A stretch of DNA of 64,000 bases from Isurus oxyrinchus (Eukaryota). The number at the start of each line of letters is the position of its first letter. Position 1 is the stretch's first letter. The DNA is taken from NCBI GenBank assembly GCA_026770705.1, contig JANJGN010000038.1:11160001-11224000 (forward strand), given 5' to 3'. The position numbers and the translations under genes are program-made. Positions 1 to 63,850 of the stretch are shown piece after piece. The notes beneath the pieces are model-generated. The model ran no database searches, had not been told where the DNA came from, and saw only the letters and a program-made list of their open reading frames with translations.

Positions 1-1018
1 ATCCTGAGGGAATGCCTAAGAAGAAGGAGACAGTCTCTAGATGAATTTAAACCGAGACAGAACATCGTGCAGTGATTACTGATTCAGGTTCTAGATTAAT
101 CTGTACGTCTATTACAGAAACAGGGGTGAGATTGGCATTAACTAAAATAGAGTCTAGTGCACCAATAACTTAACAGACCCTAAGTATTATAAGCGGAGTA
201 GGGGCATTGTGCAGCAATTATAGATACAGTGCCTCGGTTACTATAAACGGAGATAGGTCCTATTACAGTGAATGCTGATACAGGACTTAGAATTAAACAA
301 CCTGAGACACAGTGATTACAGACACAGGGCCTAGATTTATATAAACTGAGACAGGGTTTGTTAGAGTAATTACTGATACAGGGCCTCGGTTAATATAAGC
401 TGAGACAGGGCCTATTCCATTGATTACTGATACAGGGCCGAGATTAATATAAATGGAGACAGGGCCTATTACATTGATTACTAATACAGGACCGAGATTA
501 ATTTAAGCTATGACTGGATCGATTACAGAGAGTACTGATGCAAGGTAAAGATTCATATAAACTGAGGCAGGGTCTATTACAGTGATTCCTGATACAGGGT
601 CTATATTCATATAAATTGAGACAGGGTCAATCACAATGCTTATTGATACAGGCTCTAAATAAATATTGGCTGTGGGCAGGGTTTATTACAGTAATTACCA
701 ATACAATGTCTGTATTAATATAAAAAGAGACGTGATCTATCACAGTGATTACTGATACAAGGTCTGTATTAATATAAACTGAGATAGAGTCCATTACACT
801 GATTTTTGATACAAGGTATGGATTGATATCAGCTGAGGCTGTGTGTATCACAGTGACTACTGATACAAGTTTTGGATTAACATAAACTGAGACAGGGTCT
901 ATTCCAATAATTACCAATACAATTCCTGTATTAATATAAACTGACACAGGGTCTATTACAGAGATAACTGATACAAGCTATGAATACATATCAACTGAGG
1001 CAGGGTCTATTACAGTAA

Positions 1019-1117
1019 AACAAAAACAGAATTACCTGGAAAAACTCAGCAGGTCTGGCAGCATCGGCGGAGAAGAAAAGAGTTGACGTTTCGAGTCTTC
1101 ATGACCCTTCGACAGAA
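1019..1117 (-). mobile_element. Short Penelope-like/hammerhead-motif element inserted in the satellite
   Basis: Non-satellite insert flanked by direct repeats ctattacagtaa (1007-1018 and 1118-1129). The minus strand reads AGTT-CTGTCGA-A-GGGTC-atgaa-GACTC-GAAAC-GTC-AACT. Near identical to 61988-62125. Confidence 0.8.
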
Positions 1118-4100
1118 CTATTACAGTAATTCTGACACAAAGAATGGATTCATACCAACTGAGAAACCATCTATTACAGTTGTCACTGATGCATTGTCTG
1201 GGTTAATATAAGCTGAGATGGGGTCTGTCACAGTTATTAATGATCAATGGTCTAGATTAATATGAACTTAGACAAGGTATATTATAGTGATTACTGACAA
1301 ATTATGTATTAATACAAACTGAGAAAGGGTCTATTACAATGATTACTGATACAAGTATGGATTCATATCAACTAATACAGGACCAATTACAGTGATTACT
1401 GGAACAGGGTCTGGATTAATATAAACAGAGACAAGATCTATTAAAGTGATTACTGATATATGGTATGGATTAGAATAACCTGACAGGGCCTGTTACAATG
1501 ATTTCTAATACCGGGTCTTGATTAATATAAACAGAGACAGGGTCTATTACAGTGATTACCAATACAAGATATGGATTGATATAAACTAAGTCAGGGTCAG
1601 CTTCAGTGATTACTGATGCAAGGTATGGATTAATAGCAAATGAGACAGGGTCTGTAACAGGGATTACTGTTACACTATATGGACTGATGTAAACTGAGAC
1701 AGGGTCTTTTACAGTGATTACTGAGACAATGTCTGCATTAATATAAACTGAGACAGGGACTATTACAGTGAAGTATGGATTAATTTCAACAGAGTCAGGG
1801 TCCATTACAGTGATTACTGATACAGGGTCTAGATGAATATAAACTGATACAGGGTCTCTTCCAGTGATTACTGATGCAAGGTATGGATTAATATAAAAAT
1901 CAGACAGGGTTTATTACAGCGATTATTGATGCACTGTATGAATTAAAAGAAACTGAGACAGAGTATATTATAGTAATTACCAATACAATGTCATTATTAA
2001 TATAAACTGAGACAGAGTCTATTACTGTAATTAATCATACAAGGTATGGATTAGTATCAACTGATTCAGGGCCCATTACAGTGATTACTGATATAGGGTC
2101 TAGATCAATATAAACTGAGGCAGGGATTATTACAGTGATTATCGGTGCAAGGTATGGATTAATATAAACGGAGTCATGGTATGTTACAGTGATTACTAAT
2201 ACAAGGAATGGATTCATATCAACTGAGACAAGGTCTATTACAGTGATCACTGATGCAATGTCTGGATTAACATAAATTTGGACAGGGTATATTCGGGTGA
2301 TTACTGATACATGGTATCAATTAAAATTAACTGAGACAGGGTCTGTTACTTACACTAATGATAAATGGTCTAGATTAATATAAACTGAGACAGGGTCTCT
2401 TCCAGTGATTACTGATTCAAGGTATGGATTAACGTAAACTGAGACAGTGCCTATTACAGTGATTACCAATACAAGGCTTGGATGGATATAAACATAGTCA
2501 GGGTCTACTTTAGTGATTACTGATACAAAGTATTGATGAATAGCAATTATGACAGGGTCTATTATGGTAATTACTGATACATGGTCTAGAGTAATATAAC
2601 TTGAAGCAGGGTTTATATCAGGGTCTATTACAGTGATCACTGATACAGAGTCCAGATTAATATAAATGGAGACTGGGTCAATCACAGTGATTATTGATAC
2701 AGGATCTACATTAATATAGACTTAGCACTGGGTCTATTACAGTAATTGCCAATACAATGTCTATGTTAATATAACCTGAAACATGGTCTATCACAGTGAT
2801 TACTGAAACAAGGTATGTACTAATATAAACTGAGACAGGGTCTGTTACAGTGATTACTGATACAAATGATAAATTAATATAAACTGAGACAGGGTCTATT
2901 ACAATGATTACAGATAAAAGGTATGGATTTGTACCAACTGAGATAGGGTTTATTACAGTGATTACTGATACAGTGTCTGGATTAGCATAAACTGAGACAA
3001 GGTCTTTTACTTTGATTACTAATACGTGGTACTGATTAAAATAACTTGAAAGAGCCTGTTACAATGACTACCAACACAGGGCCTAGATTAATATAATAGA
3101 CAATGTCTATTATAGTGTTTACCAATACAAGGCTTAGATTGATATAAATTCATTCAGAGTCTACTTCAGTGATTACTGATACAAGGTATTGATTAATATC
3201 AACTGAGACAGGGACTTTTATTGTGATTACTGAGACAAGGTCTGCATTAATATAAACCAAGGCATGGTCTATTACAGTGGTTACTGATACAAGGTGTTGA
3301 TTAACATCAACTGAGTCAGGGTCAATGCATGGTCAGTGATGACTGATACAGGGTCTAGATGAATATAAACTATGTCAAGGTCTATTGGAGTAATTACTGT
3401 TACAAGTAATGGATTAACATAAACTGAGACAGGGCGTATTACAATCATTCCTGATGAAGGGTATGGATTAATAAATTGATGAACAGAGTTTATTGCAGTA
3501 ATTAGTGATACAAGTAATGGCTTAATATCCACTGAGAAAGGGTGTATTACATTAATTACAAAAAAACTTTGCCTATATTACTATAGACTGAGAGAGGGTA
3601 TCTAACAGTTGTTATTGATACAATGTATAGATTAATATCAAGTGAGGCAGGGTCTATTACAGTGCTTATTAAACACAGTCTAGATTAGTGTAAATGGAGA
3701 CAGGGTTAATCACAATGATTATTGATACAGAATCTAGGTGAATACAGACTAAGGACATGGCCTATTGCAGTAATTACCAATATAATGCCTGTCTTAATTA
3801 GCAATTACTGATATAAAGTATGGATTAACATAAACTGAGACAAGGCCTATTACAATGATTACTCATATATGGTATGGATTAAAATAAACTCAGACAGGGT
3901 CTGTCACATTGATTTCTGATACAGGGTCTAGATTAATATAAACTAAGCCACGGTCTATTAGAGTAATTATCTATACAAGATCTGAATTAATATAAACTGA
4001 GACAAGGTATATTACTGTGATTACCAATAGAAGGCCTGTATTGATATAAGCTAAGGCAGGGTCAGCATCAGTGATTACTGATTCAAGGTTTTGATTAATA

Positions 4101-6744
4101 TCAACTGAGACAGGGCCTATTACAATGATTAGTGATACAGGATCAAGCTTAATATAAACTGAGAGAAGGCCTAAAACAGTGATTACTAATACAAGGTCTA
4201 GATTAATATAAATTGAAACAAGGTCTACTACAATGATTATTGATACAGGGTCTAGGTTAAAATAAACTGAGTCAGCATCTATTAGACTAATTACTAATTC
4301 ACAGTCGGTATCAATATAAACTGAGACAGGGTCTATTACAGTGATTACTGATACAGGGTCTAGATTAATATAAGTGGAGACACTGTCAATGAGAATGATT
4401 ATTGATATTGGATCTACATTAATATGGACTCTGGACAGCGTCTATTTCAGTGAGTAATGATACAAGTTATCGATTAATATAAACTGAGACAGGTTCAATT
4501 ACAGTAATTGCCAATGCAATGTCCGTATTGATATGAACTGAGACAGGATCTATTACACTGATTACTGATACAAGGCCTGCATTACCATAAATGGAGATAT
4601 AGTCTATTGCATTGGTTACTGATACAAGTTTTGGATTAATATAATCTGAGACAGGATCTATTACAGTGTTAACACTGATACAAGATATGGATTCATATCA
4701 ACTGAGATAGAGCCTATTACAGTGATTCCTGATACAAGGTCTGTATTAATATAAACTGAGAAAAGGCCTACTACAGTGATTACTGTTATATGGTATGAAT
4801 TAAAATAAACTGAGACAGGGTCTTTTACAATGCTTACCGATACAGAGTCTGGATTAATTAAAACAGAGGCAGGCTCTATTACAGTGGTTGCCAAGAGAAG
4901 GCTTTGATGGATCTAAACTGAGTCAGGGCCTACTTCAGTGATTACTGATACAAGGTATCGATTAATTTCAACTGAGACAGGGTCTGTTGCAATGATTAAT
5001 GTTGCAATGCATGGATTGATTTAAACCGAGACAGGGTCTTTTACAGTGATTAATGAGACAAGGTCAGTATTAATATAAACTGAGACAGGGCCTATTACAA
5101 TGATTACTGATACAGGGCCTGGAATAATGTAAACTGAGACATGGTCCATTACAGTGATACATGGTATGGATTAATAAAAAATGAGACAGGGTTTATCACA
5201 GTAATTACTGATACATGGCATGGAATAAAATAAACTGGGACAGTATCTGTTAAAGTTCTTACTGATACATGGTCTTGATTCAGGTAAATAGAGACCATGC
5301 CTCTTTCAGTGATTAATAATACAAGGTCTGGATTGATATAAATTGAGACAGGGTCTATTCCAGTCATTATCGAGATTAGGTCTGTGCTAATATAGATTTA
5401 GTCAGCATCTACTTCAGTGATTACTGATACAAGGTATTGATTAATATCAACTGAGACAGGGTCTGTTACAGTGGTTATTGGTAAAATATTTGGATTGATA
5501 TAAACTGAGATAGGGTCTTTTACTGTCATTAATGATACAAGGCCCGTATTAATATAAAATGAGACATGGTCCATTACAGTGATTACTGATACAAGGTGTG
5601 GATTAAAATAAAGTGAGACAAGGTCTGTTAGATTTATTATTGATACATGGTATGGATTATAAGAAACTGAGACAGAGTCTATTGCAGTCATTACCAATAA
5701 AAGACCTGGATTGATATAAACTGAGATAGGGACTATTCCAGCCATTACCAAGACAAGGTCTGTATTAATATTAACTGAGTCGGGGTCTACTTCAGTGATC
5801 ACTGATTCAAGGTATTAAGTAATAACAACACAGATAGGGTCTGTTACAGTGCAACAATGTATGGATTGAAACAAACTGAGTCAGTGTCTTTTACACTGAT
5901 TACTGAGACAAGGTCTGTGTTAATGTAAAGTGAGACAAGGTTTGCTGATACAAGGTATGGATTAATTTCAACTGAGGCAGGGCCTATTACAGTGATCATT
6001 GATACAGGGTATCAATTTACATAAACTGAGACAAGGTTTATTACAGTGACTACTGATACAAGTTATGGATTCATATCAACTGAGGCAGGGTCTATTGCAG
6101 TGATTGCTAATGCAGGGTATGAGGATAATATATACTGAGACAGAGTATATTCCAATGATTACTGATACATGGTATGAATTAAGATTAGCAGAGACATGAT
6201 CTATTACAGTGATTACCAACACAAGGCCTGTATTGATGTAAACTGACCCATGGTCTACTTCAGTGGTCACTGATACAATGCATTGATTAATATCAACAGA
6301 GACAGGGTCTGTTATAGTGATTACTGTTACAATGTATGGATTGAAATAAACTTAAAGAGCATCTTACACAGTGACTAATGATAAAATGCCTGTATTAATA
6401 TAAATGGAGATAGGGTCTCTTTTAGTGGTTAGTGATACAAGGCATGGATTAAAATCAACTGAGGCTGGGTCAGTAGTTACTAATATAGGACCTAGATTAA
6501 TATAAAATGAGGGAAGGCCTATTTCAATGATTACTGTTACAATGTATGGATTACTATAGATGTACAAAGGGTCTATTTCAGTGATTACTATACATGGCCT
6601 GTATTAGTATATACTGAGGCAGGGTCTCTTTCAGTGTTTACTGATACAAGGTATGGATTAATATCAATTGAGGCAGGGTCCATTACAGTGATTACTGATA
6701 CAAGGCGTGGGTTTATATAATATGAGACAGAGTCTATTACAATG

Positions 6745-6968
6745 AAAAAATTCAGCAGGTCTGGCAGCTTCGGCGGAGAAGAAAAGAGTTGACACTTCGA
6801 GTCCTCATGACCATTCAACAGAACTGAGTGAATCCTAGGATCATCTTTCCATGAGGACTTGAAACATCAATGTTTTTCTTCTCCGCCGATGCTGCCAGAC
6901 CTGCTGAGTTTTTCCAGGTAATTCTGTTTTTGTTTTGGATTTCCAGCATCCGCAGTTTTTTGTTTTTA
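6745..6968. mobile_element. Inverted-repeat (hairpin) copy of the same Penelope-like element
   Basis: Arm cagcaggtctggcagcttcggcggagaagaaaa plus its reverse complement; flanked by tctattacaatg (6733-6744) and tctattacagtg (6969-6980); degraded hammerhead core on the minus strand at 6787-6825. Confidence 0.8.
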
Positions 6969-8340
6969 TCTATTACAGTGCTTACTGATACAAGGTCTGG
7001 GCTGGTCTAAATTGAGACAGGGTGTATTACTGCGACTACTGATACAGGGTCTGAATTAATATAATCTGATACTGGGTGTAGTACAGTAATTTCTGATGCA
7101 GGGCCCAGGTTACTATACACTGCGACAGGGTCCATTACATTGAACATTGATACAAGGTCTGTGTTAATATAAGGTGAGGCAGAATCTCTTTCAGTGATTG
7201 CTGATACAATGTATGGATTAATATCAAGTGAGCCAATGTCTCTTTTAGTGGTTACTGATGCAACATATGGATTAATATCAACTGATGCAGGGTCTATTAC
7301 AGTGGTTACTGATACAGGGTCTAGATTAATATAAACTGAGACAGATTCTGTTACAGTGTTAATGATGCAAGGTCTGGACTGGTGTAAACTGAGACAGCAT
7401 GTTTCATAGTGAATACTGTCACAGGGTCTGTATTGATATAATCTGAAACTCAGTACAGGACAATGATCACTGATACAGATTCTGGATTAATATAAACTGA
7501 GACTGGGTCTAGTACTGTGATTACTGATACATGGTATGGATTAAGATAAACTGGAAAGGGTCAATTAATGTGGTTAACGACATAAGGCCTGCACTGATAT
7601 AAACTGAGAATGGGTCAATTACATTAATTAATGATACAGGGCCTAGATTAATATAAATTGAGACAGGCTCGGTTACAGTGATTACTGATAAATGGTCTCA
7701 ATTAATTTAAGCTTATACAGAGTCTATTACAATGATTACTGATACAGGTTGCAGGTTAATATTAGCTGAGACAAGGCCTATTATAGTGATTACCAGTACA
7801 ATACCTGCATTAATATAAACAATGCCACTGTCTATTCAAGTGAATACTGATACAAGGCTTGGATTAATATAAACGGAGACAGTGTGTTCTACTGTGAATA
7901 CTGATACAGGTTATGGGTTAATATATACTGAGACAGGCTTTATTACAGCATTCACCAATACAATATCGGTGAATATATAAACTGAGAAAGGGTATTTTAC
8001 AGTGATTATTGATTCAAGGCATGGATTAATATAAACTGAGACTGGGTCTATTATAGTGATTACTGATACATGGTATTGATTAACATAAACTGAGACAGGG
8101 TCTATTACAGTGATAACAAATACATGGTCTGGGCTGATACTAACTGAGACAGGGTCTATTCCAATGATAAACAAGACAAGGTCTATATTGATATAAAGTG
8201 TGTCAAAGTTTTTACAGGGATTACTGATACAAGTTATTGATTACTATCAACTGAGGCAGGGTCTCTTATGGTGATTACTAATACAAGGTTTGTATTAATA
8301 AAAACTGAGATAGGGTCTCTTTCAGTGCTTACTGACACAG

Positions 8341-11300
8341 AACATGGATTAATATAAACTGAGACGGTGTGTATTACAGTGAATACTGAAACAGGCTATG
8401 GGTTAATATAAACTGAGACAGTGTGTATTACAGTGAATTCTGAAACAAGTTATGGATTATTATAAACTGAGACAGTGTCTATTACAGTGAATACTGAAAC
8501 AGGTTATGGGTTATTATAAACTGAGACAGAATGTATTACAGTGAATACTGAAACAGGTTATGGGTTATTATAAACTGAGAGTGTGTATTAAAGTGAATAC
8601 TGAAACAGGTTATGGGTTTATATAAACTGAGACAGTGTGTATTACAGTGAATACTGAAGCAGGTTATGGGTTATTATAAATGGAAACAGTGTGTATTACA
8701 GTGAAAACTGAAACAGGTTATGGGTTATTATAAACTGAGATAGTGTGTATTACAGTGAATACTGAAACAGGTTATGGGTTAATATAAACTGAGACAGTGT
8801 GTATTACAGTGAATATTGAAACAGGTTATGCGTTATTATAAACAGACAGTGTGTATTACAGTGAATACTGAAACAGGTTATGGGTTATTATAAACTGAGG
8901 CACTGTGTATTACAGTGAATACTGAAACAGGTTATGGGTTATTATAAACTGAGACAGTGTGTATTACAGTGAATACTGAAACCGGTTATGGGTTATTATA
9001 AACTGAGACAGTGTGTATTACAGTGTATACTGAAACAGGTTCTGGGTTATTATAAATTGCGACAGTGTCTATTACAGTGAATATTGAAACAGGTTATGGG
9101 TTTATATAAACTGAGACAGTGTGTATTACAGTGAATACTGAAACAGGTTATGGGTTATTATAAACTGAGACAGTGTGTATTACAGTGAATACTGAAACAG
9201 CTTATGGGATATTATAAACTGAGATAGTGTGTATTACAGTGAATACTGAAACAGGTTATGGGTTATGATAAACTGAGACAGTGTGTATTACAGTGATTAC
9301 TGAAACAGGTTATGGGTTAATATAAAGGGAGACAATGTGTATTACAGTGAATACTGAAACAGGTTATGGATTATTATAAACAGAGACAGTGTGTATTACA
9401 ATGAATATTGAACCAGGTTCTGGGTTATTATAAACTGAGATAGTGTCTATTACAGTGAATACTGAAACAGGTTATGGGGTATTATAAACTGAGACAGTGT
9501 GTATTACAGTGAATACTGAAACAGGTTATGGGTTATTATAAACTGAGACAGTGTGTATTACAGTGAATACTGAAACAGGTTATGGGTTAATATAAACTGA
9601 GACAGTGTGTATTACAGTGAATACTGAAACACGTTATGGATTATCATAAACTGAGACAGTGTCTATTACAGTGAATACTGTAACAGGTTATGGATTATTA
9701 TAAACTGAGACAGTGTGTGTATTACAGTGAATACTGAAACAGGTTATGGGTTATTATAAACTGAGATAGTGTGTATTACAGTGAATACTGAAACAGGTTA
9801 TGGGTTATTATAAACTGAGACAGTGTGTATTACAGTGAATACTGAAACAGGTTATGGGTTATTATAAACTGAGACAGTGTGTATTACAGTGAATACTGAA
9901 ACAGGTTATGGGTTAATATAAACTGAGACAGTGTGTATTACAGTGAATACTGAAACACGTTATGGATTATCATAAACTGAGACAGTGTCTATTACAGTGA
10001 ATACTGTAACAGGTTAAGGATTATTATAAACTGAGACAGTGTGTGTATTACAGTGAATACTGAAACAGGTTATGGGTTATTATAAACTGAGATAGTGTGT
10101 ATTACAGTGAATACTGAAACAGGTTATGGGTTATTATAAACTGAGACAGTGTGTATTACAGTGAATACTGAAACAGGTTATGGGTTAATTTAAAGTGAGA
10201 CAGTGTGTATTACAGTGAATACTGGAACAGGTTATGGGGTATTATAAAGTGAGACAGTGTGTATTACTGTGAATACTGAAACAGTTTATGGGTTATTATA
10301 AACTGAGACAGTGGGTATTACAGTGAATACTGAAACAGGTTATGGGTTATTATAAACTGAGACAGTGTGTATTACAGTGAATACTGAAACAGGTTATGGG
10401 TTATTATAAACTGAGACAGTGGGTATTACAGTGAATACTGAAACAGGTTATGGGTTATTATAAACTGAGACAGTGTGTATTACAGTGAATACTGAAACAG
10501 GTTATGGGTTATTATAAACTGAGACAGTGTCTATTACAGTGAATACTGTAACAGGTTATGGATTATTATAAACTGAGACAGTGTGCATTACAGTGAATGC
10601 TGAAACAGGTTATGGGTTATTTTAAACTGAGACAGTGTGTATTACAGTGAATACTGAAACAGGTTATGGGTTAATATAAACTGAGACAGTGTGTATTACA
10701 GTGAATACTGAAACAGGTTATGGGTTATTATAAACTGAGACAGTGTGTATTACAGTGAATACTGAAACAGGTTATGGGTTATTATAAACTGAGACAGTGT
10801 ATATTACAGTGAATATTGAAACAGGTTATGGGTTTATATAAACTGAGACAGTGTGTGTTACAGTGAATACTGAAACAGGTTATGGGTTATTGTAAACTGA
10901 GACAGTGTGTATTACAGTGAATACTGAAACAGGTTATGGGGTATTATAAACTGAGACAGTGTCTATTACAGTGAATACTGTAACAGGTTATGGATTATTA
11001 TAAACTGAGACAGTGTGCATTACAGTGAATGCTGAAACAGGTTATGGGTTATTTTAAACTGAGACAGTGTGTATTACAGTGAATACTGAAACAGGTTATG
11101 GGTTAATATAAACTGAGACAGTGTGTATTACAGTGAATACTGAAACAGGTTTTGGGTTATTATAAACTGAGACAGTGTGTATTACAGTGAATACTGAAAC
11201 AGGTTATGGGTTATTATAAACTGAGACAGTGTGTATTACAGTGAATACTGAAACAGGTTATGGGTTATTATAAACTGAGACAGTGTGTATTACAGTGAAT

Positions 11301-14300
11301 ACTAAAGCAGGTTATGTGTTATTTTAAACTGAGACAGTGTGTATTACAGTGAATACTGAAACAGGTTATGGGTTATTATAAACTGAGACAGTGTGTATTA
11401 CAGCGAATACTGAAACACGTTATGGATTATTATAAACTGAGACAGTGTCTATTACAGTGAATACTGTAACAGGTTATGGATTATTATAAACTGAGACAGT
11501 GTGTATTAAACTGAATACTGAAAAAGGTTATGGGTTATTATAAACTGAGATAGTGTGTATTACAGTGAATAATGAAACAGGTTATGGGTTATTATAAACT
11601 GAGACAGTGTGTATTACAGTGAATACTGAAACAGGTTATGGGTTATTATAAACTGAGACAGTGTGTATTACAGTGAATACTGAAACAGGTTCTGGGTTAA
11701 TATAAACTGAGACAGTGTGTATTACAGAGAATACTGAAACAGGTTATGGGTTATTATAAACTGAGACAGTGTGTATTACAGTGAATACTGAAACAGGTTT
11801 TGGGATATTATAAACTGAGACAGTGTGTATTACAGTGAATACTGAAACATGTTATGGGTTATTATAAACTGAGACAGTGTGTATTACAGTGAATACTGAA
11901 ACAGGTTATGGGTTATTATACACTGAGACAGTGTGTATTACAGTGAATACTGAAACAGTTTATGGGTTATTATAAACTGAGACAGTGTGTATTACAGTGA
12001 ATGCTGAAACAGGTTATGGGTTATTATAAACTGAGACAGTGTGTATTACAGTGAATACTGAAACAGGTTATGGGTTAATATAAACTGAGACAGTGTGTAT
12101 TACAGTGAATACTGAAACAGGTTATGGGTTATTATAAACTGAGACAGTGTGTATTACAGTGTATACTGAAACAGGTTCTGGGTCATTATAAATTGCGACA
12201 GTGTCTATTACAGTGAATATTGAAACAGGTTATGGGTTTATATAAACTGAGACAGTGTGTATTACAGTGAATACTGAAACAGGTTATGGGTTATTATGAA
12301 CTGAGACAGTGTGTATTACAGTGAATACTGAAACAGCTTATGGGATATTATAAACTGAGATAGTGTGTATTACAGTGAATACTGAAACAGGTTATGGGTT
12401 ATGATAAACTGAGACAGTGTGTATTACAGTGATTACTGAAACAGGTTATGGGTTAATATAAACGGAGACAATGTGTATTACAGTGAATACTGAAACAGGT
12501 TATGGATTATTATAAACAGAGACAGTGTGTATTACAATGAATACTGAACCAGGTTCTGGGTTATTATAAACTGAGATAGTGTCTATTACAGTGAATACTG
12601 AAACAGGTTATGGGGTATTATAAACTGAGACAGTGTGTATTACAGTGAATACTGAAACAGGTTATGGGTTATTATAAACTGAGACAGTGTGTATTACAGT
12701 GAATACTGAAACAGGTTATGGGTTATTATAAACTGAGAAAGTGTGTATTACAGTGAATACTGAAACACGTTATGGATTATCATAAACTGAGACAGTGTCT
12801 ATTACAGTGAATACTGTAACAGGTTATGGATTATTATAAACTGAGACAGTGTGTGTATTACAGTGAATACTGAAACAGGTTATGGGTTATTATAAACTGA
12901 GATAGTGTGTATTACAGTGAATACTGAAACAGGTTATGGGTTATTATAAACTGAGACAGTGTGTATTACAGTGAATACTGAAACAGGTTATGGGTTAATT
13001 TAAAGTGAGACAGTGTGTATTACAGTGAATACTGGAACAGGTTATGGGTTACTATAAACTGAAACAGTGTCAATTACAGTGAATACTGTAACAGGTTATG
13101 GATTATTATAAACTGAGACAGTGTGCATTACAGTGAATGCTGAAACAGGTTATGGGTTATTTTAAACTGAGACAGTGTGTATTACAGTGAATACTGAAAC
13201 AGGTTATGGGTTAATATAAACTGAGACAGTGTGTATTACAGTGAATACTGAAACAGGTTATGGGTTATTATAAACTGAGACAGTGTGTATTACAGTGAAT
13301 ACTGAAACAGGTTATGGGTTATTATAAACTGAGACAGTGTATATTACAGTGAATATTGAAACAGGTTATGTGTTTATATAAAATGAGACAGTGTGTGTTA
13401 CAGTGAATACTGAAACAGGTTATGGGTTATTGTAAACTGAGACAGTGTGTATTACAGTGAATACTGAAACAGGTTATGAGGTATTATAAACTGAGACAGT
13501 GTGTATTACAGTGAATACTGAAACAGGTTATGGTTATTATAAAGTGAGACAGTGTGAATTACACTGAGTACTGAAACAGGTTCTGGGTTATTATAAACTG
13601 AGACAGCATGTATTACAGTGAATACTGAAACAGGTTATGGGTTAATATAAACTGAGACAATGTGTATTACAGTGAATACTGAAACAGGTTATGGGTTATT
13701 ATAAACTGAGACAGTGTGTATTACAGTGAATACTGAAGCAGGTTTTGGGTTATTATAAACTGAGACAGTGTGTATTACAGTGAATACTGAAACAGGTTTT
13801 GGGTTATTATAAACTGAGACAGTGTGTATTACAGTGAATACTGAAACAGGTTATGGGTTATTATAAACTGAGACAGTGTGTATTACAGTGAATACTGAAA
13901 CAGTTTATGGGTTATTATAAACTGAGACAGTGTGTATTACAGTGAATACTAAAGCAGGTTATGTGTTATTTTAAACTGAGACAGTGTGTATTACAGTGAA
14001 TACTGAAACAGGTTATGGGTTATTATAAACTGAGACAGTGTGTATTACAGTGAATACTGAAACACGTTATGGATTATTATAAACTGAGACAGTGTCTAGT
14101 ACAGTGAATACTGTAACAGGTTATGGATTATTATAAACTGAGACAGTGTGTATTAAAGTGAATACTGAAAAAGGTTATGGGTTATTATAAACTGAGATAG
14201 TGTGTATTACAGTGAATAATGAAACAGGTTATGGGTTATTATAAACTGAGACAGTGTGTATTACAGTGAATACTGAAACAGGTTATGGGTTATTATAAAC

Positions 14301-15280
14301 TGAGACAGTGTGTATTACAGTGAATACTGAAACAGGTTCTGGGTTATTATAAACTGAGACAGTGTGTATTACAGAGAATACTGAAACAGGTTATGGGTTA
14401 TTATAAACTGAGACAGTGTGTATTACAGTGAATACTGAAACAGGTTATGGGATATTATAAACTGAGACAGTGTGTATTACAGTGAATACTGAAACATGTT
14501 ATGGGTTATTATAAACTGAGACAGTGTGTATTACAGTGAATACTGAAACAGGTTATGGGTTATTATACTCTGAGACAGTGTGTATTACAGTGAATACTGA
14601 AACAGTTTATGGGTTATTATAAACTGAGACAGTGTGTATTACTGTGAATACTGAAACAGGTTCTGGGTTAATATAAACTGAGACAGTGTGTATTACAGAG
14701 AATACTGAAACAGGTTATGGGTTATTATAAACTGAGACAGTGTGTATTACAGTGAATACTGAAACAGGTTATGGGATATTATAAACTGAGACAGTGTGTA
14801 TTACAGTGAATACTGAAACAGGTTATGTGTTATTATAAACTGAGACAGTGTGTATTACAGTGAATACTGAAACAGGTTCTGGGTTAATATAAACTGAGAC
14901 AGTGTGTATTACAGAGAATACTGAAACAGGTTATGGGTTATTATAAACTGAGACAGTGTGTATTACAGTGAATACTGAAACAGGTTATGGGATATTATAA
15001 ACTGAGACAGTGTGTATTACAGTGAATACTGAAACAGGTTATGGGTGTATATAAACTGAGACAGTGTGTATTACAGTGAATACTGAAACAGGTTATGGGT
15101 TATTATAAACTGAGACAGTGTGTATTACAGTGAATACTGAAACACGTTATGGGTTATTATAAACTGAGACAATGTATATTACAGTGAATACTGAAACAGG
15201 TTATGGGTTAATATAAACGGAGACAGTGTGTATTACAGTGAATACTGAAACAGGTTATGGTTTAATATAAACTGAGACAG
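8341..15280. repeat. Homogeneous 54-bp satellite core (~128 units)
   Basis: Near-identical units actgagacagtgtgtattacagtgaat-actgaaacaggttatgggttattataa; period measured directly (actgaa at 9841 and 9895). Confidence 0.98.
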
Positions 15281-15830
15281 CCTCTATTACAGAAATTACC
15301 AATACAATATCTGTATTTATCTAAACTGAGAAAGGTTATTTTGCAGTGATTATTGATACAAGGCATGGATTAATATAAACTGCGACTGGGTCTATTACAG
15401 AGATTACTGATACGTGCTATTGATTAACATAAACTGAGACAGGGTCTATTACTGTGATTACCAGTACAAGGTCTATATTGATATAAAGTGTGTCTGGGTT
15501 TTTACAGGGATTACTGATACAAGGTATTGATCACTATCAACTGAGACAGGGTCTCTTGCAGTGATTACTAATACAATGTTTGCATTAATATAAACTAAGA
15601 CAGGGTCTCTTGCAGTGGTTACTGATACAAGGTATGGATAATATCCACTTAGGCAGGGTTTATTACAGTGATTACTGATACAAAGTCTGTATTCATATAA
15701 ACAGAGGCAGGGTCTAGTGTAGTGATTACTGGTAAACGGCCTAGATTAATATCAACTGCTACAGAACAGGATTGATACTGAGCCCAATTTAATAAAACTG
15801 AAGCGGGGCATAAAGCGATAATCTCTGACA
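15281..15830. repeat. Diverged 54-bp satellite, right flank
   Basis: Same diverged consensus as the left flank, fading out by ~15.8 kb. Confidence 0.9.
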
Positions 15831-16494: not shown

Positions 16495-16600
16495 TGAACT
16501 GAAAACAGAAAGTGCTGTAAAGACTCAGCAGGCCTGGCATGGTCTGAGGAGAGAGAAACAGAGTTAACGTTTCGATTCCATGTGAGTTTATTCAGAGCCA
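16495..16600 (-). mobile_element. Degenerate Penelope-like/hammerhead-motif element arm
   Basis: aaacagaaagtgctgtaaagactcagcaggcctggca...gaaacagagttaacgtttcg is homologous to the arms at 36159-36354. Confidence 0.65.
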
Positions 16601-36158: not shown

Positions 36159-36354
36159 AAACAGAAAATGCTGAAAAAATACTCAGCAGGACTGGCAGCA
36201 TCTGTCCATGGAGAAGCAGAGATCTGAAGAAGATTCATATGGATTCGAAACGTTAACTCTGTTTCTCCCTTCACTGATGCTTCCAGACGTCCTGAGTTTT
36301 GCCAGCATTTTCCGTTTTTATATCAGATTCCCAGCATCCGCAGCATTTTATTTT
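36159..36354 (+). mobile_element. Hairpin Penelope-like element with a hammerhead-ribozyme motif at the apex
   Basis: Inverted arms at 36159-36223 and 36255-36320; apex CTGAAGA-A-GATTC-atatg-GATTC-GAAAC-GTT; TSD cattata(t/g)attt at 36147-36158 and 36355-36366. Confidence 0.78.
36210..36268 (+). ncRNA. Minimal type I hammerhead ribozyme motif (predicted)
   Basis: Stem I ggagaagcagagat/aactctgtttctcc; core CUGAAGA; stem II with one U-U mismatch; GAAA; palindromic ACGU stem III; GUU triplet. Confidence 0.55.
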
Positions 36355-55928: not shown

Positions 55929-55998
55929 GATGTTGCGAAAATGTCGATTACATTTACTGTTTCTGAGATCAATGGTTAAAATCCGAAATAATGGAAAA

Positions 55999-56080
55999 CG
56001 TAGTCGACAGGATTTGAACCTGCGCGGGGTAACCCCAATGGATTTCAAATCCATCGCCTTAACCACTCGGCCACGACTAC
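55999..56080 (-). tRNA. tRNA-Ser(TGA), near intact
   Basis: GTAGTCGTGGCCGAGTGGTTAAGGCGATGGATTTGAAATCCATTGGGGTTACCCCGCGCAGGTTCAAATCCTGTCGACTACG: 82 nt, long variable arm, A and B boxes, TTTT terminator immediately downstream. Confidence 0.92.
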
Positions 56081-57269
56081 AGACCTGGAGAGTAAAACAT
56101 ATATATTTCATATATGAAATCATAGAATAGTTGCAGCAGAGAAAAAGCGTCTTCTTCCCACCCTGTCACTGCAACAACCCAGCCTTTTCCCCATAACCCT
56201 GCAATTCATACTGTCCCTCCTCGTTCTCCCTCCCAAACTGAGAATGAAAGAGAGAGAATGAAAGAGGAAGAGAAGTGATGGGTTTTGTAGATCCCAGGGA
56301 AAAGAGATTCCGGGAACAGTTCATGGTGACAGTTCACAAAGCAACAAGAAAACAACATTATTCCCTGAGGAGGGCCAGGAGTGGGAGCGTGTTTAGTTCA
56401 AACACAGAAGACTTGTTCAGCCAATAACAGCATCGGATCTGTTAGACATATACATGAAGTGAACAGTGAGGTGAAATAGTGCCACAAGCTGCGGAGGTGC
56501 AACTTTCAATTTCCAAGACCCACCATCCTCATCAGTGCTGCTCCTCTGAAACTTTCAAGGTCAATGTTGATCCTTTATATGGTGCCGTTCCCAGAACGAG
56601 ACACAGTCCTCCAGGTGTGACCTAACCAGGGCTTTGTATAGCTGCAGCAAACCTTTCCCTCTTTCCTATAACAGCCTCTGTAACAGGTTGTATAGACAGA
56701 GAGATTAGATTGTATCGATCGAATAAGAAAAATAAGGAGATGCTTCATCGGACTAAAATTCCTTTTCAAATTCCATTTGAAATGAACTTAATTTTTTTGA
56801 AAGCTGTATAAGAATCTCCAGCCTAACTCTTCATGTCACTGGGCCAGGGGAACTTTGTTAATTTTCACACACTGAGCAGGGACACGGCAGAAGCTCCTGC
56901 ACCTCTTTCAATATTGTTTTTCTTAACTCAGAGTTTTCGAAAGGGAATTGGATAATGACTTGAAAGGGAGAAAAACGATCAGGGTGATGGAGAAAGAGAA
57001 GGAAACTGCGACTAATTGGAAAGAACATTGTAAAAAGCTGATATTGATATGATGGTTTAAATGGTCTCCTCGCACACTCTGCCATTTTGTGATGATATCA
57101 CCAGATTAATTTGATGACAACATTTCTAAATGTGCCACGCGAATTCCATTTCTGTAAAACAAAGACCCAAAGTGCGGCTGCAGGACCTCACAGTTTAACA
57201 TAGTGTGCAGGTGCCTCTGGCTTTGTCAGGTATTGTTCTGTAGGGGAGTGGTTATCACATGTGCATGGA

Positions 57270-58181: not shown

Positions 58182-59384
58182 AGGTGCTCACAAGCCTCAC
58201 AACCTGGGTAAGCCATGCTACCTGTGCCTGTTATTTTCATTTCAAACCTCTTTCATTAGAGACATGCTTCACCCTCAAATTGACACGTTTATATAAAACG
58301 CAACAACATCCATCGTCAGACAGTTCCGGGTTGTTATTGGGTCCTTAAGCGACAAAGAGAAAATAATCCAACTCTCCTGTTGCTCAGCGGGTTCCAACAG
58401 CAGTGTTTTTTTATCTGAATATAAATGTAAAATATAATTTAACAACTGACCAACCAGGTACCTACAAATCTATGAAGTTATTGGATTCAAATAGACTCGT
58501 TAATGATTCCCTCTTCCTCAGCTCCGCAGTGAGTGAGACAGGGAAAAGCAGAAAAGCAGCAACATTCTGGCCCCGCACTGTCCAATCACCCGCTGCCAGC
58601 AAAAAGATACACTCACTTTCCTGAGTGTTTATTCTATGAAATGGTGAAGGGCGAATCTAAGACGCTTGTAAGATACTGTGCTCAGTTAATATCCAACAAC
58701 AAACAGGAACAAGGCAGTTTTCCTTTCACTTAAAAGGGCAAGTTTTGATAATGCTTCTGCATTAATAACTTATTTTGATAAAATGCATTTAATCTGTTGA
58801 AACGTCACAAGGCGTCCCCCGTGAACATTATATAATAAAGTGTGACACCGAGCCTCATATTCGATCAGAATACTAAAAGCTCGGTCAAAGGGGGAGGCTT
58901 TAAAAACTGTCTTAAAGGAGGAAAGTATCGATTTAATGTTCCAGCTAACAGCAATAGTTCTTCTCATTGGCGAAAGAAGTCTCCTGTGTTCAACCTAAAC
59001 AGACCAATTAGTAGGAGAAAGTTCTGTCTGGTGAAAAGATCGGGAATGAAAAAAAAAAGTGGAAAGTAACCTCTAAATGCCAAATGTCAAACCTTTCTGG
59101 TACTTTCTCTTATGTCTCATGACTGGGGATCGGCGCTTCCATTGGTCCACAGCGAATAGGGTGGAGGGTTTGGAAATTGAAAGTTACTCATGAGCAGCTT
59201 GTGGGACTATTTCACCTCACTGTCGAGTTCATGTTCCAGCTCACAGAAACCGTTGTTTTTATTGGCTGAAGAATTCGTTTGTGTTAAGGCTAAACAGGCA
59301 GTTTTGTGGTGAAAGAGATCTGAACTGAAAAACAATAGGCAAAAGCAGCGTGGATAAGCCAAATCGAAAAGCATTTTGATCGAT

Positions 59385-59456
59385 TCCTTGGTTGTCTAGT
59401 GGTTAGGCTACGGCGCTTTCAGCACCACAGCCCGGGTTCGATTCCCAGTAAGGAAA
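59385..59456 (+). pseudogene. tRNA-Glu(TTC) probable pseudogene
   Basis: TCCTTGGTTGTCTAGTGGTTAGGCTACGGCGCTTTCAGCACCACAGCCCGGGTTCGATTCCCAGTAAGGAAA; A and B boxes retained, anticodon and acceptor stems mismatched. Confidence 0.8.
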
Positions 59457-61830: not shown

Positions 61831-61904
61831 GGTCCCTGGGTGGTTTTGAACCATCAACTTTTTGCTTAACAGTTGAATGCGATAAACAATTGCACCACAG
61901 AGAC
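61831..61904 (-). pseudogene. tRNA-Asn(GTT) pseudogene
   Basis: GTCTCTGTGGTGCAATTGTTTATCGCATTCAACTGTTAAGCAAAAAGTTGATGGTTCAAAACCACCCAGGGAC; changes are mostly CpG-type transitions. Confidence 0.8.
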
Positions 61905-61987
61905 AGACGTAAGGCTGACTTGCCAACTTTCCTAAACCAGGGTGTCAGTGAATTTAAGCTTCAGATTGCTGCTACCGGGATGACAAT

Positions 61988-62125
61988 CCTAGTTCTGTTG
62001 AAGGGTCATGAGGACTCGAAACGTCAACTCTTTTCTTCTCCGCCGATGCTGCCAGACCTGCTGAGTTTTTCCAGGTAATTCTGTTTTTGTTTTGGATTTC
62101 CAGCATCCACAGTTTTTTTGTTTTT
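61988..62125 (+). mobile_element. Young Penelope-like/hammerhead-motif element with an 8-bp TSD
   Basis: AGTT-CTGTTGA-A-GGGTC-atgag-GACTC-GAAAC-GTC-AACT (61991-62029), then the arm and a T-rich end; TSD atgacaat at 61980-61987 and 62126-62133. Confidence 0.82.
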
Positions 62126-63262
62126 ATGACAATTGTTCTCTTCACTTTTACTCTTCCAAAATAAAGGGAGGGACGTTCACTGTGGATACATGGAAACAAT
62201 CTGATCCCACCCACTGCTGACACATCCATATCACCAGGAACGTGCTCTCCGACAACCGGTGCCGTCTTCTTTCCAGCCTTTCGGTGTCTTGACTGTTACC
62301 AAGTATTCTGATTGTCCTGAAGCCGATGTTAGGTTTGAGTTCCTGATGTACAGTAACGAGAATCATTTCAATCTCTCAGGTTAGTTAATTTCACTGATAA
62401 CTTCAGAGTCAATGTTCCAGCGTCTTAAAGAAGGGAAAGGTGCCTTGAATGTCTCTGGTCAGTCGAACAGATCACCCTTCATTCTCCTCTGATTCTGGTT
62501 CCCAAAGAGTTTCTAAAGATTCAGAAAGCTGGAGACTGGGTTTTCTGTTTTGCTTCCTTCTCCATTTTCCCACCTGCCAACTGACAATATTTTCCAAATA
62601 TTGAGGAGACAGTAAAGCCTTGAGACACAATTAGATCAGCCATGATCTTACTGAATGGCAGAGCAGGTTCAAAGGGCTGAATGGCCTCCTCCTGATCGTC
62701 ATTCGTCCCTTCCTGTGTCACAGCCCGAATCACTCCTGACTTTAGCAAACTGCTTTCGGAATTAATGATCAGTTAAATGAAATAAAAACCATTCAACTAT
62801 TTCCGTGTTTCTTATTTCCGTTCCTCTGCAAACATTCACTAAATTTGCAAGCTGAAATGGAACAATAATTGGCCAAGTTGGTGACATCCTTGTTTTCTGG
62901 GTGTTTGTCACTCTTGGTGTAAAGGTCTGTGTGTGTCAATGTACTTCAGTTCCCCGAGGGGTTGAACGCATTTTCACCATCACAAGCTTTATTCATATTG
63001 GTTGTGCAGTTTCATACTAAAATGTTACAGAGGCAATATCAAGATGAAAGATTGAAGAGGGGTTTGCAATGTTTGGAAGGAGGTGCAGCTAAGAAGTGGA
63101 AGATGTGAATGATGTTATTGATGATTGAGAGAAATGTATTGCAACCTTGGGGCTTTTGGAGGTCGATCCCCTTTGAAATTCAGAACAAGCTGAGGCTTGA
63201 GGTCTATAACAGCAGTGATCTCCAAGGATGTTGGGATGTGCAATACTTCGCTCTTCTTACAT

Positions 63263-63624: not shown

Positions 63625-63850
63625 CAGGTCTGGCAGCGTCTGTGGAGTGAGAAACAGAGATAATCTTCCAGCTGGATGATCTTTCATCAGACCTGGAAAA
63701 GTCAGAGATGTAACAGGTGGAAAACAAGTCCAGAGGCGGGAGGGAGGGGAGTGAAAGGACAAAAGGGAAGGACTGTGATAGGTTACAAGGCATGAGAGAG
63801 AAACTGACTAAAGGGATGATGGTGTAAAATGTGGGTAGGAATGGGACAGA
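63625..63850 (-). mobile_element. Older, longer Penelope-like pLTR remnant
   Basis: Arm aggtctggcagcgtctgtggag...; the minus strand has a pyrimidine-rich stretch leading into CTGATGA-A-AGATC (decayed hammerhead core). Confidence 0.55.

Follow-up and report, generated by a model that had tools for sequence, protein, structure and literature searches.

A Penelope-like element with a U6 hammerhead core and its truncated copies in the genome of Isurus oxyrinchus

The young mini-elements in a 64,000-nucleotide stretch of Isurus oxyrinchus DNA (the window) are, in the reading that we regard as fairly probable, 5'-truncated end copies of an autonomous Penelope-like element (PLE) of the Neptune/Nematis type, in whose master lineage A6U became fixed in the hammerhead core. 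The ribozyme is likely strongly attenuated as a result, and the copying route that made the copies would do without it. What would be new is the U6 core in a minimal hammerhead (min-HHR) of a PLE; the elements themselves are ordinary PLE stubs. No report of a U6-type PLE hammerhead core was found in the literature searched; the work of Lunse et al. on PLE hammerhead variants was not covered by this search and may bear on the novelty.

The hammerhead motif and its core across the genome

The window sequence contains a 39-nt minimal type I hammerhead motif at 61991-62029 (+), with the stems, core, GAAA, ACGU and GUC that the original prediction had described. Element positions are numbered with hammerhead C3 as 0, which puts the predicted cut between +30 and +31. 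Stems I and II, the extra base before G10.1-C11.1, the 15.2-16.2 palindrome, GAAA and an NUH triplet follow the min-HHR layout. The putative min-HHR is nevertheless not filed as a canonical member, because young copies lack the A6 of the core CUGANGA, which older subfamilies of the lineage have. An Rfam search of the motif returned no hammerhead match at E<=5, and the isolated motif was no more stable in folding than its shuffles (z -0.55), so the hammerhead call is based on the core and stem pattern together with the PLE context. The three bases preceding stem I assign this copy to the U6-U7 subfamily with the intermediate upstream variant.

Table 1 Features of the Penelope-like element copies in the window
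Feature	Position	Strand	Detail
Left target-site duplication (TSD)	61980..61987	+	8 bp, ATGACAAT; pairs with 62126-62133
5'-truncated pseudo-LTR end of Penelope-like element (putative)	61988..62125	+	-7 to ~+131 relative to hammerhead C3
Hammerhead stem I	61991-94/62026-29	+	AGUU/AACU
Hammerhead core	61995-62001	+	CUGUUGA, U6 = 61998, then extra A
Hammerhead stem II	62003-07/62013-17	+	GGGUC/GACUC
GAAA	62018-21	+	
Palindrome	62021-24	+	ACGU
Predicted cut	after 62025	+	follows the GUC triplet
Conserved segment 3' of hammerhead	62030..62093	+	to first common 3' end (~+99; putative first RT start site)
Optional ~32-bp 'tail'	62094..62125	+	to second common 3' end (~+131; putative second RT start site); cf. 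PMC11167929, excerpts
Right TSD	62126..62133	+	pairs with 61980-61987
Second stub	1017..1119	-	CUGUCGA core, motif 1081-1119; no tail; -4 to +99; inside 54-bp satellite
TSD of second stub	1007-1018/1118-1129		CTATTACAGT(AA), 10-12 bp; overlaps element ends
Head-to-head insertion	6743..6966		minus arm 6743-6825 (damaged U6 motif), plus arm 6850-6966; in 54-bp satellite
TSD of head-to-head insertion	6733-6741/6969-6977		TCTATTACA, 9 bp
Older A6 relative	36159..36353		core CUGAAGA, GUU triplet, ~77% identical; plus arm 36220-36353, inverted arm 36159-36202

The two further copies to which the original prediction had ascribed the same core change both carry U6. One is the second stub of Table 1; the other, at 6787-6825 (-) with CUGUUGA, is damaged elsewhere (G10.1>U and GAAAC>GAAGU). 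It lies in the minus arm of a head-to-head insertion whose plus arm covers +12 to +130, tail included. TSDs of the predicted 8-12 bp were recovered at all three window copies.

A 34-nt pattern, in which positions 6 and 7 were left free and the other letters exact, matched 84,138 sites in the 4.98-Gb genome, compared with 0 for the reversed control. Fixing A6 in the pattern reduced the matches to 139 of the 84,138 (0.17%), and the first 100 matches listed comprise 80 with CUGUCGA, 17 with CUGUUGA, one with CUGUGGA and two with C6. The genome-wide consensus is therefore not the canonical CUGANGA that had been named as counter-evidence, and U6 is the state of the source elements and a fixed subfamily character rather than random decay, as had been supposed. 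Most of the hammerhead motifs that this lineage has in the genome would escape a search restricted to CUGANGA. In RNA contigs from four runs, no letter besides U reached 5% at position 6, which weakly suggests that U6 is common to organisms A, B and C behind these contigs.

The autonomous element and the ends of its copies

A 3.35-kb tandem unit carries the U6 motif in its pseudo-LTR (pLTR), in agreement with the predicted PLE-type minimal hammerhead. Between U6 motifs spaced 3,353 and 3,340 bp lies a 926-aa open frame, a single ORF with RT followed by a C-terminal GIY-YIG domain (Pfam RVT_1, E 7e-8; GIY-YIG, E 9e-4, under its curated cut-off) and with the motifs DKG, YIDD and VY..YIG. The linker between RT and the endonuclease (EN) has the form CX4CxxC (CPRKRCNTC at aa 792), and the CCHH of the EN is made of C..C at 835 and the histidines 857 and 873. 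The single ORF, the CX2-5CxxC linker, CCHH and DKG are shared with the EN+ Neptune/Nematis PLEs described in the portion of 10.1101/2021.04.23.441226 considered here, as are partial tandems, an inverted 5'-truncated copy and a 30-40-bp tail; the non-canonical hammerhead core sets the present element apart from them. The 3.35-kb units stand head-to-tail, with the tandem or partial-tandem pLTRs, the inverted 5'-truncated partners, the optional 30-40-bp tail and the TSDs of EN+ PLEs. Flank matches of at least 8 bp were found at 7 of 22 simple short copies versus 4 of 300 random pairings. On every tested feature, the sequence thus assigns the element to the EN+ PLEs and, within them, to the Neptune/Nematis type. 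The closest named homolog of its protein is from Chiloscyllium (69%).

All 73 scored copies of the RT+GIY-YIG frame, the best-scoring of 199,564 candidates, are 100% identical over 596 aa and stop-free, and they are distributed over five contigs, which fits the recent mobility that had been predicted. Linkage of the motif to GIY-YIG/RT ORFs, proposed earlier as a check, was found as well: 32 of the 34 ORF ends in those loci, which partly overlap, lead to a U6 motif, and the other two have none inside the locus. The mini-elements would accordingly be 5'-truncated ends of a very recently active autonomous PLE, and the data do not support a separate non-autonomous family, since the same sequence forms the pLTR end of an element with an intact ORF and the 5' ends vary. 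Nor are the copies confined to the ~100-225 bp first described; their lengths run continuously from ~60 bp up to full length, and 52 of 96 sampled copies are short.

Copy ends were collected from 96 of the first 100 matches, in the first 4.3 Mb of contig C1, with the anchor downstream of the cut site. The 3' ends are bimodal, at +94..107 in 44 copies and at +119..147 in 49, some 32 nt apart, and three copies run on into the ORF; the bimodality is the PLE tail. T-rich ends are present as noted originally; instead of being an added tail, they belong to the templated sequence of the element and are found within full-length tandem copies too. The 5' ends spread overall over -35..+45 and beyond. 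Among short copies, 36 of 51 in the young sample and 37 of 46 in the older one start within -13..+12, where ~17 were expected; this interval was picked after data inspection, and inverted pairs entered the count with each of their arms, so that the p value (~1e-8) is overstated. The cluster near the hammerhead start exists in both samples and predates U6. An apparent sharp peak at exactly -4 (11/96) was partly an artefact of a single reference and became a broad cluster at -2..-13 with 21 subfamily references. A transcript start near stem I may be the source of the cluster, as a stalled RT should halt where it first meets the fold, on its 3' side.

With reverse transcription starting downstream of the hammerhead, 5' ends at +31 are expected from linear templates that have been cut. 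Ends at +30..32 number one in the young sample (96 copies) and two in the older sample (98 copies, mostly A6), as many as background predicts in each, so the copy ends show no trace of cleavage before or after U6. The idea that A6-era copies had cut-site run-off which U6 copies lost was rejected, such ends not exceeding background in either. For the same reason their lack is no proof that cleavage was lost with U6, and copying by way of cutting and circularisation would not produce them anyway.

Replacement of A6 and activity of the U6 core

Eight subfamilies (6-20 sampled members each) make up one lineage, with A6 in the two oldest and U6 in the six younger. Non-CpG divergence from the own majority amounts to 10% and 6.5% in the A6 groups (CUGAAGA and CUGAUGA) and to 4.1, 3.7, 3.0 and 1.4-1.7% in the six U6 groups, values that are biased low by exact-match sampling and still give the order. 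Both states occur on a near-identical background in 98 transitional copies (41 A6, 17 U6, 6 G6 and 34 unreadable or truncated). A6 was replaced by U6 once, and the six later subfamilies kept U6.

Between the oldest and youngest U6 groups, 37/218 to 41/210 sites differ in the 3'UTR (17-20%), 34/334 to 29/184 at third and 24/678 to 20/366 at first and second codon positions of the ORF, and 10-11/37 in the 40 nt upstream of the hammerhead. The motif differs at 5 of its 39 positions, which are N7, two loop bases, GUU to GUC and one stem II pair (A-U to G.U), and at none of the ten other core letters. Free positions changed in 4 of 8 cases and constrained ones in 1 of 31, the latter being the G.U that still pairs (Fisher p 0.004). 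Compared with a neutral rate of 10-20%, 1/31 gives p 0.01-0.03 for three rates and 0.16 for the lowest. The hammerhead fold is under constraint; the ten remaining core letters do not prove it by themselves (p 0.11-0.34), and the non-ribozyme segment +50..+130 is equally conserved (3/71 changed). A ribozyme that still works would be expected to leave such a pattern, which counts against the loss of activity favoured below. Stem covariation, which the original prediction had proposed as a check, did not appear: none of nine pairs changed on both sides in 12 distinct rows spanning the lineage, and one changed on one side, in stems that hardly vary and so give low power. Of the stem cells, 95% are paired, compared with 3-48% when slid.

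The 40 nt upstream (-40..-1; L031:4525-4563) changed stepwise across the U6 subfamilies from a pyrimidine tract plus AG to a look-alike of the hammerhead 3' half (GGACUCGAAA). As a stem II decoy this look-alike was discarded, its predicted pairing probability being ~0.

Published changes at position 6, which are A6C or pooled changes and not A6U, cripple cleavage. The U6 ribozyme has therefore probably lost much of its activity, and this copying route probably does not depend on it. As far as the consulted portions of the sources go, a natural A6C hammerhead has a kobs <0.1/min (PMC3088659), and A6C lowers a fast hammerhead from 0.3 to 3.55e-6/min at 0.3 mM Mg, with activity in Mn (PMC7151607). 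In pairwise mutagenesis, CUGA-motif mutations gave low activity and no rescue save for the C3:G8 swap (PMC9901934). Excerpts of further sources describe minimal PLE hammerheads as weak even as dimers (PMC4209133), the hammerhead of the Anolis Poseidon element PAc as cleaving only with its protein, PAc insertion in vitro as unaffected by hammerhead mutants (PMC11167929), and Naiad PLEs as thriving without hammerheads (10.1101/2021.04.23.441226). Folding predictions say little about U6, as A6 monomers misfold too: the U6-U7 form is predicted to zip the core against GAAAC (pair probability 0.84-0.97 in the 39-mer), the youngest forms are predicted to lose stem II in context (<0.1), and A6 forms are also predicted to misfold as monomers.

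In the route that we favour, the element protein would nick the target DNA, and reverse transcription would start internally at two sites downstream of the hammerhead, as excerpts of PMC11167929 report in vitro for the anole Poseidon element, where this is the source of the PLE tail. RT would copy the uncleaved RNA through the motif and often halt 100-140 nt on, probably at the transcript 5' end, while priming of both target strands would produce the head-to-head pairs. The fold is kept, probably because it belongs to an RNA signal that the element protein recognises, and slight cutting with the help of this protein may persist. PAc resembles the present element in that its insertions have two ends 3' of the hammerhead, separated by the length of a tail; in the part of PMC11167929 considered, neither RNA nor DNA of PAc ends at the cut site, where copy (DNA) ends do not exceed background here. 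PAc differs in belonging to another clade and in having a canonical core and a hammerhead that overlaps the start codon. Here the first ATG of the long frame (L031:4710-7487) is codon 9, ~170 nt after C3, so both copy 3' ends fall in the 5' UTR and not in the ORF as in PAc. Multiplication over several subfamily generations after the core change suggests that cutting is likely weak or unnecessary for jumping.

An alternative that we hold only tentatively keeps the same autonomous element and takes its U6 hammerhead as a working, slow variant, in which the protein (or Mn2+) makes up for the missing A6 and selection still maintains some occasional cleavage and circularisation. The other core letters, both stems and the palindrome persisted over six subfamilies while the 3'UTR and upstream region changed, and the triplet stayed NUH; the protein-dependent cleavage of PAc and the low residual activity of natural A6C (PMC3088659, PMC7151607) point the same way. 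These points are countered by the non-significance of the ten core letters, the equal conservation of +50..+130, the weakness of minimal hammerheads as dimers, the predicted core zipping and stem II loss, and the lack of two-sided covariation. A broader and somewhat more doubtful form would make vertebrate Penelope hammerheads protein-assisted ribozymes in which A6 is dispensable, with the A6U core functional through six subfamilies, the element protein replacing the role of A6, and position 6 repeatedly replaced in shark-like PLE lineages; if so, the A6-to-U6 series would be a natural experiment on the role of the ribozyme in the PLE cycle.

The role of the hammerhead in endonuclease-bearing PLEs is described as unclear in the consulted portion of 10.1101/2021.04.23.441226, and this one lineage combines an intact protein with both a canonical ancestor and a descendant whose mutated core was followed by >84,000 copies. 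If U6 is dead, the genome would provide evidence that PLEs can spread without cleavage and yet retain the fold. If U6 cuts, a core letter that hardly ever varies would have a natural exception, and this would point to protein-assisted catalysis.

Resemblance to the minimal type I hammerheads of metazoan PLE pLTRs in PMC4209133 extends to the short stem I, the extra nucleotide before G10.1-C11.1, the absence of stem III, the 15.2-16.2 palindrome, the NUH triplet, the pLTR location, and the occurrence mostly as single motifs from truncated PLEs with inverted pairs. Unlike the U6 motifs, all 44 alignment rows examined there, none from cartilaginous fish, have A6; the motif search of that study required the core, and the sole core variant named in the excerpts is U3-A8. 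The natural A6C hammerhead of phage Bcep176 likewise has a substitution at core position 6 (excerpts of PMC3088659 and PMC7151607). There it is C, at a single locus, in a full monomeric fold with slow cleavage shown and Mn2+ preferred, whereas here it is U in a putative minimal dimer-type ribozyme with >84,000 copies.

Short copies, retrozymes and neighbouring sequences

It is improbable that the short copies form a family of their own, of non-autonomous mini-elements or retrozymes, which propagates itself with a PLE acting in trans. The starts of many of them fall within a narrow zone, and clear TSDs flank several; just over half of the sampled copies being short, and the pLTR-derived origin reported for retrozymes in excerpts of 10.64898/2026.07.22.740005, would also suit such a family. 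However, short copies equal the long-copy pLTR at all tested positions save one of 95, a loop variant (6/32 short vs 0/24 long, uncorrected p 0.016). This variant is a weak hint of a short-biased source and counts against the stub reading, but it is also found in one ORF-linked copy (L015-L017). SINE-like families are expected to have a lineage of their own, one constant 5' end and diagnostic variants that the autonomous element lacks, and none of these was found; 5' ends are heterogeneous and lengths continuous to full length. Non-LTR retrozymes are similar in being non-coding pLTR-derived pieces with a type I hammerhead, but form tandem arrays of short monomers, while the copies here are solo or head-to-head stubs of an autonomous element. 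No tandem array of short non-coding monomers with a hammerhead in each was seen among the first 100 matches listed. Nor did these young matches contain any same-strand pair <1 kb; they comprise only head-to-head pairs (15 at <350 bp) and the 3.3-kb tandems. That the motif has been functionless since U6 and merely carried along is very unlikely: the core change itself and the missing cut-site ends would fit, but 1/31 constrained changes stand against the 10-20% neutral rate (p 0.01-0.03; 0.16 at the lowest).

One short direct tandem exists in an older subfamily, with same-strand U6 motifs 304 bp apart (L196/L197, G000:C1:98058 and 98362) that could dimerise in cis.

The intron of D. virilis Penelope ends at helix I. 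In the present lineage, a good splice-donor match, CAG/GTAAT, lies at ~+76 (window 62062-62071; element +68..+81) in all but the oldest subfamily. An acceptor-like tract (-30..-3) ending in AG at -4/-3 is present in older subfamilies. An origin of the short copies from spliced RNA joined at this AG was rejected, as the bases 5' of the junction share no common exon-like sequence, and none of the copies seen was spliced.

Other, decayed relatives of this PLE end are located at 16502-16599 (-), 53268-53310 (-) and 63625-63659 (-). The 54-bp satellite forms an array of ~15 kb (window 309-15758), in which the two PLE stubs share one unit insertion position (CTATTACA). The window also holds tRNA-Ser(TGA) at 55998-56081 (-), tRNA-Glu(TTC) at 59384-59456 (+) and a weak tRNA-like match at 61831-61904 (-), 76 bp upstream of the 61980 insertion.
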